From Peribolospora baueri (Eukaryota), in assembly GCA_029717555.1 (NCBI GenBank), contig JAMDHS010000014.1:186001-250000 (forward strand): 64,000 nucleotides of DNA, written 5' to 3'. Within the stretch, counting starts at the first letter, position 1; each line of letters opens with the position of its first letter. A program made the position numbers and the translations under genes. The notes under the pieces are model-generated. The model did not search any database, was not told the DNA's origin, and worked only from the letters and a program-made list of their open reading frames with translations. Of this stretch, positions 42,708-50,590 are shown piece after piece.

Positions 42708-45303
42708 TCATCCTCTTCCCGCCGGCAAGTCCTTCAGCTCGCCATCCAGGCCGACCAGGGCCAGAGGCTGCATCGCTTTGACGTACGCCTGGTTCGCCTC
42801 GTTGGCGATGAGCAGGTTGCGAAGCGCAAAGAGAGCGTGTTCTCGGATGTCTGCCGCTCCGCGAAAAGTGGGAGGGAGGACTAGAGTCAGCGGAGGGAGC
42901 CTGCCTGAACGAGCGAAGAGGAACGGGACGGCACCACTCACAGGGATTAGCATCATCCAATGGCGTCAACCCAAGCAACACCGCCAAACCGTCGCATTCC
43001 CTCACGCGATCCTGCGTCGCCCTGTCATCCACGCAGAGCGCTCCGATCAAGCGGACTAGATCCCGCTTGAGGAACATGAGCATTCGTGCGTCTTTGTGAC
43101 CCGCCGCAGGGCCCGCTGCCGCCAAAGACGTGTTGCTGTGTCGTGCTCGTGTCCCCGGGGCGGGAAGTGTGGGGGCGAATGCGACAGATTGGCGGAGGAG
43201 AGCTACGAGAACGCCAATGCATCGGGCATCGAGGACTCAGCATTTAAAAACAGCCCTGCTCCTCAACCTTACTGCTGCAGGGGAATACTCACAAACCAAC
43301 CGCTCGACGAAGCGAGTGTCTCCGCTCGTCATCCTCTCCAAAACCTTCCCGTTCGCCGCATTCCATCTTTCCCGCTGCCCCCGTCGGTCCCCCGCCGTTA
43401 ACGCAATCGTGAGGAAGCAGTGCAGAAACAGGATGAGCGTTTTGAGCACGACGGGCAGTCGCCGGTCCGGCTCAGGCACCTCCGACGCTGGTGAATCGTC
43501 CGAAGCAGTCGAAACTGCTTGTGAGCTAACCCCAACGCCAACAGCGCTGGGAGCGGACGGCGGTGTGGATACCCGCATCGCTTCTTCCGCAAAGGCGCCA
43601 AGAGACATAAAAGCATCGACGAGGAACGTCAAACCGTCGGCATCGGGGCCTGTCTCCTCCTCCTGCGATCCCCGGAAATGGAGCCATGAATCGAGCAGCT
43701 TGAGCAACGTGACCTGCGAGGAAGTTACTAGTGTCGTGTCAGAAGGGGGGGCGAGGTTGCGATAAAGCGTGTCGGCGAGGGCGTCTTGAAAGAGGAGAGC
43801 GAAGATGGTGTAGCTGGGGTCGAGTCGGGTGGACGGAAAAAAGGGTTAGATATGCGAAAGGTGTGCCTCAGTTTCACAAACGAATATGTCCAACTCACGC
43901 CAGACCTATCGAGTCCTCGGGATTCTCATCACCGTTGTCTGTGGTCGTCTTTCCGTCTTCCAACTCGTTTTCATTTTCGAGGATACCGTCGACGTGAAAC
44001 AGCAACGACTGCACGACCGACAAGCCGGCCGGAGAAGTGACGAAGCTGCGTCTGAACGAACGAGCACAATGGAAGATTAGAGTTGCCGCTCCGAAGCCAG
44101 AAAGAGATGCTTGGAAGGTAGGCAGTCTCACCTTCGTTCCCTATTGTACCGCAGGCAGTTGAGGATAAGCACTTGAGTGGCTGAGACCGTGGCAGGTTCA
44201 GGCGATGTGAGGACTCGGCTGAAGATGGAGGCAGAACGTCGATCACCGACGTAATGTTGAATGCGGAAGTGAGTAGAAGGGACAGAGGGCAGCCAGGATT
44301 ATCATACATCCCACTCCCACCTCCGCTGAGAGGGGAAATTGAATCCTCACATAAGCAGATTGTCATGAGCGCCTACGCCCACGAACGTCTCCCACAATCG
44401 CGCCTGCAGGTCGTCATTCGAAGTGATGGCGTTGGAAAGGAGCTGGACCAACGCTCTATTCAGTGGCAGGCCTTTGGGGGTTAGGGGACGGGGTGGATTC
44501 GGGATAGGTGATGGACAATGGAAGGGATCATGAGCATGTACAAACGACGACAAGAAACGATGATAAGTAAAAAGTATATGATTTGGTAGCCATGGACTTA
44601 CACTCGGTGTCGGAAAGTCGAGCAAAAGAGGTAGCATAGAAGAGCAGCATCCGTATGGAGCGTTCTTCTTCGCTGATAAGGGAAACAGAAGAACGGTGAG
44701 GGCAGAGGGGTTCCCTGTCAGACATACGCATACTCTGTATACCATAAATTCCAAAATTGAGGGCCAGGGTCTGTGAGTGTCAAGCACCGAACTTACAACA
44801 CTCTCTCCTGCGCCTCCTTGCCCCCAGCCGCGGCGTTCCTCAACATTCTTGCCAAACTGATGGCTACCAAAATCGCCACCTGTTTTACGTTCACATCAGC
44901 AGCTGGTTTTGGATCCTGAGGCGGCTTGGCTTCCGCTTCTTCCGCCGTAGAACAGTCTTGGATCGTACGGACGAGAGAACGCCAGAGGTATGAAATAGCT
45001 GGCCATGGGACAACCTCTGGGGAGGTTCGGCTAGAGGACGGGAGCAGGTTGAGGTTTCGGAAGTGGTCAACAGCTTCTGGCAGGCTCAAGCTCGAACGAT
45101 CGGAAAGAATATCAAGAGGCCGGGTTACTGCTGATGCAAGGGCCGGCACCCGACGGTGCTCACCGGTACTCCGCGTCCCTAAGCTTCGCCGCCTCCTCGT
45201 CCAGCTCGGCAATCAGCGCGCGACCACCCACGTCGGTCGAACGCAAAAACCGTTGAATGGCCTCATCAAGACTTGCAGCCTGCGCTCCAGCGCCTGTGCC
45301 CAT
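42708..45303 (-). CDS. Ataxin-10 / Ctr86-like ARM-repeat protein
   Basis: C-terminal KRDLVRLIGALC...QDRVRECDGL..LL....DDANP | IREHALFALRNLL..NEANQAYV matches the Atx10 homology domain; NDDLQARLW in the middle region. Confidence 0.88.
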
Positions 45304-45731
45304 GGCCGCGTAAGTGGGCTTGCTAATTCAGAGCTCCCAGTTTATATGGTCCTGGCTCTTCGAAGCGCGCGCGGATGCCAGATCACGTGCCGCCTTGTGA
45401 TTGATCGAAGGACAGCAAGAACGCGGTCCGTCGATGTACACGGAATGGCCTGCTATAAGACAGATGTAGAGCCTGCCAAGACCCGGTAGGATACTTCGTC
45501 GCACGCGTAGGAGAGACCGAGTGTCTTCTTACACACAAGGTGGACTCGAGAGGAAGAAAGCACTGGCGATCCATCGCTCGCTACTGCCTGCTTGCTTCCT
45601 CTCAGTCGCGACTATCAACGCGCCTGGAGAGCGCTGCGGCAGATGCCTACAACTTTGGCTGGTCTGGTCGATCCAGTCCAACTGCAACTCATCACTCCTC
45701 TTCTTCTCGCCATGCTTGCGACGTTCTCAAC

Positions 45732-48697
45732 ATGACTCGCCCTTCCTTCCTCGTGGCCGAGGAACAATATTCAGACTTACAAGACTTTATGCTTTCCGAG
45801 CCCCGAGGTCCCGATATGCGAAATGCCGAGCTCTTCCTGGCCATGATCACTGAAGCAGAACCTCCAGAGACGCTCGAGGTGGCGCCCGTTCGTATTGAGA
45901 ATACGGTCGATGACGAAAGGCAAGATCTTTCCCAGGGCCACTCATCCACATACGTGCCCCTTTACTGCATGCTCAAGTCTTCCTGTCGCCTTTTTCGCCC
46001 TTCCTCCGATGCATTCGGGGTCCAACCTTGCAGCTGTCCCCCCTTTGAGTTCCAATAAGTGGACCGCTACGTATACACCAACTCGGTGGCCCCACCACCA
46101 CCTTAGGTGCTGCAGGGCTGTGACTGTGATGCGGATGAGTGTGATCCTAAGACGTGCGCTTGCTTCAAGAGGCACATCGAGCTCGACCCAGTCAGCTGGG
46201 AAGGGTATGAGGACTTTGCCTATAATAGGGAGGGGCTGTGGGTGGGGCTTCGAGGCGCCCCTGCTTGGGAGTGCAATAGGTGCGTTGTTACTTCTAAGTC
46301 CGCCGATGTCTGGGTATATTTAGAAGCTCATATCTCTGCTGCTGGCGACTCCAAGTAAATGCGGCTGTTCCTCTTCGTGTCGAAATAGAGTCAGTATAAA
46401 GATGCGCACCCGCTCATGTCAGACAGCGTAGACGTTGACTTCGATGTTCTCTGCGCTGCATCAGGTCGTTCAGAAGGGCCGGCGCGTTCCTATTTGCCTC
46501 TTCAAGACACGCAAGAAGGGTTGGGGTACGTTTCTGATCGGCTTCCTCAGCCGCCGTAGCTCATTTTAATTCCTAGCACTTTCCATCTTGACGGACAGGT
46601 ATCAAGGCCGACAGCTACATTCCTTCCGGAACCTTCATCGCTGTCTATGCCGGCGAGCTGGTGAAGGACGAGGAGGCTGAGGTTAGGGGCTTTTTGTACG
46701 AGAAGGAGGGTAGAATATACCAGTTCGACCTCGACTTCTGGCACTGTAACGCTTGGATGAACGAAAAGAGGTTTCTGACCGGACTGCCTCTCAAGAAGGA
46801 CGCCACGCGCTGGAAGGTGAGCTACGGAGAACGGCTGGTCGCCCGGTCGCGGCCACATATGCACTGGCTTCATGCGCCAGTAATCGAATCCGTTTGACGT
46901 CCTGACTCCCTGCTTTTGTTTGGATCGGATGGATTCTCGGCAGAGGCGTCCAGTGTCTGTGACCCAAGAGCCGGAAACGCCAAACCAGTTGCGAAAGGGA
47001 AAAGACCTGGGCTCGGCGCCGAGGGCAAAACGACAGCCAACCATGGTCCTGTCTCCACCTCCCTCAGCTCTTTCGCCTCAGGTCAATGGCAAGAAGGTGG
47101 GTGCATCGTATCCTGTATCGCACGATGGAGCAACTATGCTTTAATTTCATGGATGTCGACTAGCTCAGGTTTGCAGCTACAAACTAATGTGCTTAGTCGC
47201 TGACTGGACAGTCCATATGTTTCTTTCGTACACAGGCATCGGATGTGACACCTTCCTCACGGCCGATAAACGGATCCGTCTTTCCTTCCCTAGGTCGTTC
47301 TCCGGTTCGGGATGGAAGTTCGGTGATGACGCCAATATCTCTTCTGTCCGACGGGGATGACGACGACGACAACGACTATTATCCTCCAGACGGGATCACG
47401 ATGGAGATCCGACGTCCAGCAAAAAGGCCGAGGTTAGACAACCATCCAATGTCGGAAAAGCAAAATGAGCTCGGTTCCACCGCATTTGCGAATGGCTTTC
47501 CGGCCCTTGGTCGGCACACTTGTTTCAGCCCGTCTCCTGAGTCGAGTACTGGGGACCAAAATAATGCCTTCGAAGAGGCCGTGCAGACGAAGGAGGGAGA
47601 GACGAACGACGATATCAATGAGGACGTTGATGGCCATGAAGACGTTGGTGATCATGAGGACGTTGATGATCACCAGGACGTTGGTGATCATGAGGACGTT
47701 GGTGATCATGAGGACGTTGGTGATCATGAGGACGTTGATGATCATGAGGACGTTGCTGGTCATGAGGACCTTGATGATCATGAGGACGTTGGTGATCATG
47801 AGGACGCTGATGATCATGAGGGCGTTGCTGGTCATGAGGACGTTGATGATCATGAGGACCTTCATGATCCTCAGTTAAACGAGGATCTTGTCGGTGTTGA
47901 TGCTTTCCACTATGGAAACGTGAGTTTACTCTCGGCCGGTCACTGTCTTCTGTCTGTCTGTCCGAAGCTTTCCTTACCAAGGCTTCCGGCACCCTGTCGG
48001 TTCGGTTCCTACAGATCTCTCGATTCCTCAAGTGAGCCTTGCATCGCCTTCCTGCGCTTTGCGGTCAATCTCACTGACGTGCTGTTCCTTCACACGATCT
48101 CCTTCCGTCCAGTCACTCATGCGATCCAAACTGCTACCTCCATCCGGTCTACGTCGAAGATCACGATCCACTTCGACCCTACCTTGCATTGTTCGCCAAG
48201 CGCGATATAGCCGAAGGCGAGGAGCTCACGTTCAGTTGTTTTGGCGATGACGACGACGATGTGGAAGGAGAGGAGGACGTTGTGACCAATGTTGATGAGG
48301 AAACGTACGTGTTGGAGGGACGCAAAGGGCCCCCGCAGACTGCCCTTCCTGAATCGCTCACCCATGGTAAGGCGAAAGACGCTACGACGGGAACGAGATC
48401 GGCGAGGATGTTGGCCCTCGAGCGCGTCGTTGATGCGGACAGTCCTGAAAGGCGGCGCCGAGCCGCTACGGTCGCCGCTTCCTTGTTGGGACCCGCTGCA
48501 GCGAAGAGTGAGGGGTGGGGGACTCGAAAGGATACTTGCTTTTGCGGTGAGTCCTCAATTTATGACTCGTCGCTTGTATCTTGCATCAGCGGCGTGTCTA
48601 TCTTGTCCGACCTTGTTCGTTCTAACTCGGTCTGCCATGCACGTTTCGTCCCTACACAGGCGCGAGGAATTGTCGAGGCAAGCAATTCAGCATGTAA
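45732..48697 (+). pseudogene. clr4: Clr4/SUV39/DIM-5-type H3K9 methyltransferase (pre-SET/SET/post-SET) with two in-frame stops
   Basis: PVRIENTVDDE-SCPPFEFQ*VDRYVY...PPPP*VLQGCDC...CDPKTCAC...WECNSKCGCSSSCRNRVVQKGR...FKTRKKGWG..YAGEL...YQFDLD...VDAFHYGNISRFLNHSCDPN...FAKRDIAEGEELTFSC...CFCGARNCRG. TAA at 46056, TAG at 46104. Start uncertain; functional status unresolved. Confidence 0.8.
47615..47870 (+). repeat. 18-bp in-frame coding minisatellite, about 13-14 copies, encoding (DHEDVG/D)n
   Basis: Consensus GATCATGAGGACGTTG(G/A)T inside the SET-domain insertion. Confidence 0.95.
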
Positions 48698-49084
48698 GAT
48701 GCTGCGCTTCCATCACTTTCACGTCTCCCCCTTCTTTCTTGCTGTTCGACCGTCATCGTATGCCTCCGTTCCTTCGCCGTTTGGCTTGTGTGACCCTCTC
48801 AGCATGGGACAGAGCCATCACCACTACAAGCATCCATCCATCGTCGTCCCTAGAATTTCGTTTGATCTGCTGTTGTACTGCAATTGTAACCAGGCGTGGA
48901 ACGCGCCCCCTCTGTCGTCTACACGTGATGAGATATCGATCCGATCACTTTGAGAGAAGACTTGATCTTCTAAAGCAGGTTCCAACACGCACGTCCTCGC
49001 ACCCTCGTCTCACCACTTTGCCGCAAACGCTCTTCTAAAAACATCCCCCCGGAACGACCAACCGACTGGGATTAGAAATTAGAG

Positions 49085-50590
49085 ATGCCGCCTCCAGAAC
49101 TCGAACCGACGATCACGGAGCGCGACTTCGTATTCTCCACCTTGCCAGAAGGCCTCCGCGTCGACGGGAGGGGGATGATGGATATGCGCGAGCTGGAAAT
49201 CCGTTTCGGCGAGGAGTTGGGATGGTGTGAGGTTAGGTTGGGGGAGGGAAGGTGAGTTGCTGTTCATTTCTGTGACGTGCCAGTTTTGTGTATGGAGCTC
49301 GGTCGAAGACTGGGAGACTGGGATGGTTCGGTTGTGCCGCCGGTGTGCTTGGTGAACGGCGCGAGCATAGGCTACGTTCGCAGCCCTCGGTACGGAGGGG
49401 GAAGGGGGGGGGGGAGGGTGGAATGAAACGGTGGGGTACGGTGCCCCCGATCTCTCGTCCGCTCATTCTTTCTCCCTCCGCCTTTTCGTTGCTTCTTGTA
49501 GGGTCATTGCACAAGTCTCCGCCTCCATCGTCCCGCCGCGAGAGGACCGGCCGTACGAAGGCTTCCTGATTTTGCACACCGAGGTGTCGCCTATGGCTGG
49601 ACCTGGGTTTGAAGCTGGAAGGTATGTGGAGCAAGCTCTTACCGTTCTTCATCGTCCCATTCTCTATCTGGACGGAAACTAGGGACACCCTGGAGGAGCT
49701 GACCGACCCGTCGTCGCTGGTTGTCTTTGCACCCATCAGAGCATCGGAGGAGGAGGTGCTCATCACGAGGCTCTTAGAGAAGGCTTTGAGAAGGAGCGAC
49801 GCGGTGGATAGGGAGGCTTTGTGCATCGTCGCTGGGCAGAAGGTGAGCGAGACATGGCCGCTCCCGTGTCACCCCTCTCATTTTAGTTCTGAGAATGAAG
49901 CCTCATCTCCTATCTCGTTTTTACACCTTTCGTCTCGGAAAAGGTCTGGCAAATACGGGTAGATGTCCATTTTCTCTCTCACGAGGGGAACCTTGTTGAT
50001 CCGGCGTGCATAGCCGCCATTACGGCGCTCCACCACTTCCGAAGACCGGACGTGACGGTCATCGGCGATGAGGTGGAAGTGGTGAGTGAGCGCGTGCCAC
50101 GATGCTTCCCCCTGCTCTCTGGTCCTAATCCGATTGGCTACTTTGTCTATTTCGTTCAGCACTCCATCGAGGAGAGAGTGCCAGTCCCTCTGGCGATACA
50201 TCACACGCCTGTATGCGTCACGTTCGCCTTCTTCGATGACGGGTGAGTTGAATCGCATACCTTCTTGATTTCCTATGGGCGACCATCTGCGGCCTCAACC
50301 CCCTTGTCTCACTCGGCCCATATCTGTCATCTCTTTACTTTTCCCATAGCCCCCATACCATCATCGACCCTACTGCCCTCGAGCTCGCCCTTTCCTCCTC
50401 GACGCTCACTCTCACCCTCAACGCCCAAAAGGAGATCTGCGCCCTTACCAAAGCGGGCGGCGCGCCGCTGGAGCCAGATGAGATTTTGAGGGTGATGAAC
50501 ATCGCCGTCGGCAGGGTCAGGGAAATTAGCACAAGTATCAAAAAAGCGTTGGAAGAGGATGCGAAGGAGAGAGTCATCGAGGTGCGATGA
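49085..50590 (+). CDS. RRP45: Exosome RNase PH-like subunit Rrp45
   Basis: GLRVDGR..DMRELEIRFGEELG; PREDRPYEG; LEKALRRSDAVDREALCIVAGQKVW; GNLVDPACIAAITALHHFRRPDV; ERVPVPLAIHHTP; EICALTKAGG. Confidence 0.95.

Follow-up and report, generated by a model that had tools for sequence, protein, structure and literature searches.

A KMT1 (Clr4-type) gene interrupted by two premature stops in a fungus in or near Ustilaginomycotina: probably a young pseudogene or null allele

The stretch of DNA analysed here, 64,000 nucleotides (nt) of contig JAMDHS010000014.1 from the Peribolospora baueri assembly GCA_029717555.1 (the window), carries on its forward strand a SET-domain gene of the KMT1/Clr4/DIM-5 type that is interrupted by two in-frame premature stop codons, referred to below as stop 1 and stop 2 (Table 1). 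Its homologues identify the locus as the KMT1 (Clr4-type) gene of a fungus that belongs, at least closely, to Ustilaginomycotina, and the features described below make it probable that the one KMT1 gene present here has become a null allele or a pseudogene of recent origin. Stop 1 is a recent and ordinary nonsense mutation, TAC (Tyr) to TAA, that postdates the divergence from a sister organism, here called organism B. These conclusions are carried by the reality of both stops in independently assembled contigs, by the position of the stops within sequence that homologous proteins share, and by the sense codon that organism B retains at stop 1.

Four DNA sequencing runs from a single study carry the stretch, two from organism A (X1 and X2; 96% of sampled words) and two from organism B (X3 and X4; 55% of sampled words); the listing of runs that carry it includes no RNA run. 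Logan contigs assembled separately from X1 and X2, which represent two samples, are identical to the window over positions 43500-47670, with no other letters and at depths of approximately 113 and 90, respectively, and there is no alternative contig at either stop in these runs. The stops are real and not an assembly error. As a result, the proposal that sequencing or assembly errors have introduced the stops into a gene that is intact has almost no chance of being correct, and the possibility of such an error, which the original prediction had named as a way in which it might fail, is answered by two runs that give the same stops as the window.

Translation of positions 45732-46358 (+) reads CPPFEFQ-stop-VDRYVYTNSVAPPPP-stop-VLQGCDCDADECDPK, in which the two stops share one reading frame and no frameshift occurs. 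The Pfam Pre-SET model (PF05033) matches residues 103-182 of this translation with a score of 32.5 bits (cut-off 29.1; E = 1.4e-7), a match that spans both stops. Moreover, phmmer, run against 1.84 billion representative proteins, returned 40 hits at E<=1e-3, the best of them at 34-47% identity, and the best stretch of each of the 40 covers at least residues 103-157, so that it crosses both stops; the high-scoring segment pairs obtained with homologues in tblastn also run across them. Because every one of these hits and the Pre-SET match cross the stops, the latter lie within homologous coding sequence rather than in an intron mistaken for exon or in a fortuitous frame. Word-based protein searches gave no match, either for the pre-SET exon among longer proteins or for the last long open reading frame among proteins of near length, and the collection searched seems to contain neither organism A nor organism B. 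The original prediction of a co-linear pre-SET exon with two in-frame stops and no frameshift is therefore confirmed by the translation, the Pfam match, the phmmer hits and the organism A contigs. The exon start that it gave (46034) also holds, although its end (46280) lies one base too far, the donor GT of exon 2 beginning at that very position.

The alignment column of stop 1 is occupied by Trp in four and by Phe in five of the nine aligned homologues, in agreement with the earlier statement that an aromatic residue is usual there, and by Phe in Schizosaccharomyces pombe Clr4 when the alignment is extended through the full-length homologue P0004. The column of stop 2 is variable, with S, D, H, L, F, E, D, L and D in the nine sequences. 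Over the region 43500-50500, organism B differs from the window at 67 letters in 4171 nt and at 53 letters in 2685 nt, that is, by approximately 1.6-2%; of the 119 A/B base differences, the 40 that are listed end with position 46058. At this last position both X3 and X4 have C in place of A at full depth, so that codon 46056-46058 of organism B is TAC (Tyr). Since organism B has TAC and all nine homologues have an aromatic residue, the sense codon is ancestral, and stop 1 is derived and recent. The parsimonious history would lead from an aromatic ancestor to Tyr in the common ancestor of A and B, and thence by a C-to-A transversion to the stop in A. Recent inactivation, which was one of three options in the original prediction, is thus supported by the TAC codon of organism B and by the preservation of the frame, the splice sites and the cysteines, but the C:G-to-T:A route from TGG that was suggested with it is wrong for stop 1. 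The comparison of orthologues at the stop positions that had been proposed gives a sense codon in sister organism B at stop 1, and the other homologues align through both stops.

Ordinary translation of the gene would end after 70 residues, ahead of any zinc-binding or catalytic part of the protein, and the next in-frame ATG lies only deep within the SET domain. This early termination, together with the position of the next in-frame ATG, suggests that no active enzyme would be produced from the locus. In addition, the invariant Tyr of the C-terminal SET motif ELxF/YxY is replaced by Cys, as had been reported earlier: the Tyr of ELTFxY is present in nine of nine homologues, and the ELTFSC of the window gene aligns to ELTFDY of human SUV39H2. 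This catalytic Tyr is described as essential for cofactor binding and catalysis in the available portions of PMC10907163 and in a figure legend of PMC3814326. The Tyr-to-Cys replacement suggests an enzyme that was impaired beforehand, or a gene on which constraint had by then been relaxed.

Other decay is slight, there being no frameshift and only the two internal stops in a gene model of 690 codons plus a terminal TAA. Of 64 columns without variation among the other sequences, 5 differ in the window copy, compared with 0-3 departures for each homologue; the number for the window copy is mildly elevated and not that of an old wreck. All nine cysteines of the pre-SET zinc cluster are kept (GCDCDADECDPKTCAC ... 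ECNSKCGCSSSC, pattern CxCx4-5Cx4CxC ... Cx3CxCx3C), as are GWG (in the form KKGWG) and RFLNHSCDPN, and Pfam SET is matched on exon 9 with E = 5.2e-9. The post-SET CxCxxxxC is likewise kept, as CFCGARNCRG spliced over the last intron, and these features, together with the downstream exons and their splice sites, were all found where the original prediction had listed them as retained. Of 12 insertions or deletions (indels) listed between A and B in 7 kb, 11 lie outside the gene, and the single one within it is in frame, organism B lacking 6 nt at 47366, where exon 7 has a poly-Asp run (GAC/GAT). This low in-gene indel count is weakly consistent with a frame that was kept under selection until recently.

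Several points weigh against the view that the gene is a young pseudogene or null allele. Good preservation of the frame and motifs is what a functioning gene would show as well, and the gene's 893 nt of introns are also without indels, so that the low indel count within the gene is weak evidence. X1 and X2 may be the source of the assembly itself, which means that an assembly slip is excluded by them and that the stops may represent a strain-specific mutation. If organism B were to share the TAG of stop 2 with its frame kept, it would become more plausible that this stop is older and is either tolerated or bypassed. Readthrough, editing and bypass splicing are, moreover, judged here from DNA sequence. 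Finally, the search for an intact paralogue, which had been put forward as a check, covered the window; tblastn with three homologues (P0004, P0006 and P0048) matches this locus only within it, and an intact paralogue could lie elsewhere or partner genes, HP1 for example, could be absent.

Genes of similar appearance are known from ascomycetes. According to the available part of PMC10776026, sexual-stage editing in Fusarium and Neurospora converts premature UAG codons of 71 premature stop codon (PSC) pseudogenes to UGG, with two edited stops in 6 of 71 Fusarium PSC pseudogenes, and these genes, like the window gene, are otherwise intact and carry one or two in-frame premature stops. By analogy, both stops of the window gene might be overcome by stage-specific adenosine-to-inosine (A-to-I) editing (UAG to UGG and UAA to UGG) or by programmed readthrough, in which case the heterochromatin writer would be made in some life stage only. 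We consider this very improbable even though the remainder of the gene is intact, a Trp in place of stop 1 would agree with four of the nine homologues, and stop 2, a UAG preceded by U at -1, falls within the 6-nt loop of a predicted hairpin, a context that is favoured in ascomycetes in what is available of PMC11156358. Stop 1 is TAA, which is the allele that Fusarium workers use as uneditable, having made such alleles by changing TAG to TAA (available part of PMC10776026), and the UAA editing that is reported in the accessible portion of PMC11156358 leads to UGA, which is still a stop. Only stop 2, therefore, has the form that is converted from UAG to UGG in the PSC pseudogenes. Moreover, the ancestral codon at stop 1 is TAC rather than TGG, so that editing would not be restorative, whereas in PSC pseudogenes an ancestral Trp codon that had changed from TGG to TAG is restored. 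The PSC pseudogenes are also found in filamentous ascomycetes, hosts with TAD2/TAD3-dependent mRNA editing in the sexual stage, whereas the closest named relatives of the window gene are from basidiomycetes. Earlier reports of editing in basidiomycetes are regarded as artefacts in the accessible portion of a 2024 review (PMC11156358); a 2026 paper on Microbotryum, in the part of it that is available, claims RNA editing.

Other properties of the two stops also argue against recoding. Neither predicted hairpin is more stable than shuffled sequence (z = -0.12 for stop 1 and 0.07 for stop 2), and two leaky stops in a row would multiply their yields to a very low value. Both stops are followed by G, a context that is not known to promote readthrough. 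A recoded product would still be without the catalytic Tyr. A suppressor tRNA was not found in the window, where tRNA-Pro is the only tRNA carried, a result that applies to the window and not to the genome at large. Editing, as an option in the original prediction, is consequently disfavoured by the uneditable type of stop 1, by an ancestor that was not TGG and by the basidiomycete host. In a related scheme, the locus would be a conditionally expressed heterochromatin writer in which the UAG at 46104 is older, common to organism B, and overcome by UAG-to-UGG editing or readthrough in one life stage, the UAA at 46056 then either being rescued too or representing a very recent knock-out of that system. 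We give this scheme even less credence, although if true it would provide the first premature-stop-corrected gene in a basidiomycete.

Removal of both stops by splicing is an alternative that we also regard as unlikely. An in-frame intron at 45954-46106 or 45954-46115 (donor GTGCCC), or at 45888-46106 or 45888-46115 (donor GTTCGT), would give a shorter protein in which the zinc cluster and the SET domain are still present. Such in-frame GT...AG pairs do exist in the sequence, the acceptor-like sites CCACCACCTTAG and TGCTGCAG are pyrimidine-rich, and the donor GTTCGT at 45888 is similar to donors that are used in this gene. The donor GTGCCC, however, is without G at +5, compared with G at this position in eight of the eight GT donors of the gene. 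Moreover, any such intron would delete at least 24 residues that are conserved in all nine homologues and that align with the crystallised catalytic fragment of Clr4. The plain Tyr codon that organism B reads at stop 1 implies that this stretch was ordinary exon until recently, and the product of bypass splicing would still have Cys at the position of the catalytic Tyr. The confidence that we withhold both from a young pseudogene or null allele and from the alternatives to it is reserved for models that we have not thought of.

Two other explanations were tried and rejected. Codon reassignment is contradicted by the TAA with which the gene itself terminates, at the point where the homologues stop, and by the many long open reading frames in the standard code, of up to 574 residues, that the window contains. 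Decay resembling repeat-induced point mutation does not fit the absence of an AT-rich dip near the gene (GC content 0.52-0.61), the housekeeping nature of the neighbouring genes, or the transversion at stop 1.

The assignment of the gene to the Clr4/SUV39 type and of its host to the basidiomycetes, both of which had been proposed earlier, is supported by the homologues and by the cytochrome c1 gene of the window. Ustilaginomycotina account for every homologue with a named source, these being Violaceomyces palustris, Thecaphora frezii, three Tilletia species and Acaromyces ingoldii. When compared with solved structures, the full-length homologue P0004 has its best matches in Clr4 (E of approximately 1e-46), SUV39H2 (5e-42) and DIM-5 (5e-36), and in a protein atlas it adjoins clusters named SUV39H1/Clr4 and DIM-5; SUV39H2 is the best match for exon 9 of the window gene itself. 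Basidiomycete proteins are the closest to the cytochrome c1 of the window, with V. palustris as the best named match, a protein that is too conserved for any placement finer than Basidiomycota.

S. pombe Clr4, Neurospora crassa DIM-5 and human SUV39H2 resemble the window gene in the conserved N-flank, the nine-Cys pre-SET, the SET domain with GWG and NHSCDPN, and the post-SET CxCxxxxC. In contrast to these proteins, no chromodomain is seen in the window gene, its SET domain is split by an insert of about 330 residues, its catalytic Tyr has become Cys and it carries the two premature stops, TAA at codon 71 and TAG at codon 87, in a frame that is uninterrupted in the family. Its nearest relatives are the KMT1-like genes of Ustilaginomycotina (V. 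palustris PWN51894.1, T. frezii, Tilletia spp. and A. ingoldii), which are the named top hits, are co-linear, and have 34-47% identity over the pre-SET exon. With these it has in common both the flank ...NTVD..PCPP.DF.(W/F)T..Y... and an insert-split SET domain. Unlike the window copy, however, the Ustilaginomycotina genes are annotated as uninterrupted and keep ELTFxY, and the insert of the window gene, of about 330 residues in our gene model, bears a repeat and far exceeds in length the insert of the nine aligned homologues. SETDB1-type enzymes have a "bifurcated" SET domain with a long insert between its two halves, as is the case in the window gene. Nevertheless, the window gene has neither the MBD nor the Tudor domains of SETDB1, and the sequence affinity, as measured for P0004, is to Clr4/SUV39 and not to SETDB1.

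A gene lost by nonsense mutation is an ordinary kind of event, but the gene concerned here is the only writer of H3K9 (histone H3 lysine 9) methylation. The literature on smut-type fungi is conflicting, and the role of H3K9 methylation and the activity of the KMT1 family in them are unsettled in the sources as far as these are available. In the accessible part of PMC10126416, Ustilago maydis is described as being without H3K9 methylation, HP1 and RNA interference. Dataset S1 of PMC9963178, so far as it is available, lists UMAG_05327 as the U. maydis KMT1, a protein of 509 residues with Pre-SET at 119-254 and SET at 274-494, and also lists homologues of Cul4 and Rik1. The likeness of UMAG_05327 to the window gene is drawn from these table entries and not from an alignment, and a full-text literature search for UMAG_05327 found no paper. 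The A/B pair, with a stop at codon 71 in one organism and Tyr in the other, would be a natural comparison for studying the role of KMT1, and the effect of its loss, in Ustilaginomycotina. For annotation purposes, we recommend marking the locus as a pseudogene rather than fitting it to a gene model in which an intron bypasses the stops.

The features of the locus are collected in Table 1. The start codon and exons 6-7, which make up a lineage-specific insert, are predicted parts of the gene model. Eight of its introns are of the GT-AG type, 73-139 nt long, and one is of the GC-AG type, and all nine have usable ends. The latter, intron 1, is probably a genuine intron of this rare type: taking it out restores the exact family spacing NTVDDE-S-CPP in the alignment. 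If it is kept, it forms an open in-frame insert of 38 codons, the end of which reads ..QP.., comparable to the QP or EP that precedes CPP in most homologues. Three of the five A/B differences that are listed within 45732-46058 lie in intron 1. The GC content at third codon positions, computed per exon, does not discriminate between a coding and a non-coding status for exons 6-7 or for intron 1. Within the long insert that divides the SET domain sits a tandem repeat, at which the Logan contigs of all four runs break.

Table 1. Coordinates of the KMT1-type gene and of features within it (window positions)
Feature	Position	Strand	Basis or description
KMT1/Clr4/DIM-5-type SET-domain gene	45732-48697	+	Splice sites placed by hand, co-linear alignment with nine homologues, Pfam Pre-SET and SET
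Exons 1-5 of 10	45732-45919, 46034-46279, 46356-46389, 46465-46525, 46599-46816	+	Splice sites and homology
Exons 6-10 of 10	46944-47096, 47236-47919, 48015-48031, 48113-48546, 48660-48697	+	Splice sites and homology
Probable intron 1	45920-46033	+	114 nt, GC-AG, GCAAGA...TTGCAG
Exon 2	46034-46279	+	Conserved N-flank (CPPFEF...) and first part of the pre-SET zinc cluster; contains both premature stops
Premature stop 1, TAA	46056-46058	+	Codon 71; residue 108 of the translation of 45732-46358
Premature stop 2, TAG	46104-46106	+	Codon 87; residue 124 of the translation of 45732-46358
Tandem repeat	47618-47869	+	18 nt x 14 copies, 87% matches; encodes an acidic His-Glu-Asp-Val-Gly/Asp-Asp run
Micro-exon	48015-48031	+	17 nt, encodes ISRFL(N); splits the conserved RFLNHSCDPN over two exons
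Cys codon TGT replacing the invariant C-terminal SET Tyr	48237-48239	+	ELTFSC against ELTFxY
Last exon	48660-48697	+	Completes post-SET CxCGxxxCRG; TAA stop 1-3 residues from where most aligned homologues end

The neighbouring genes are of the housekeeping kind and encode DNA polymerase alpha subunit B, cytochrome c1, an ataxin-10-like protein, an RNase PH exosome subunit, EF-1 beta and PRP4. Beside the ataxin-10-like gene, ARAGORN places the tRNA-Pro (TGG) at 42913-43003 on the reverse strand; at 91 nt it is longer than a plain tRNA and so probably contains an intron. In the region of the RNase PH gene, at 49397-49433, run X2 (the second sample of organism A) yields an extra contig of 41 nt with two differences and a depth of approximately 10, where the depth of the main contig is approximately 84-91, and this contig may represent a minor variant or a further copy of a repeat.

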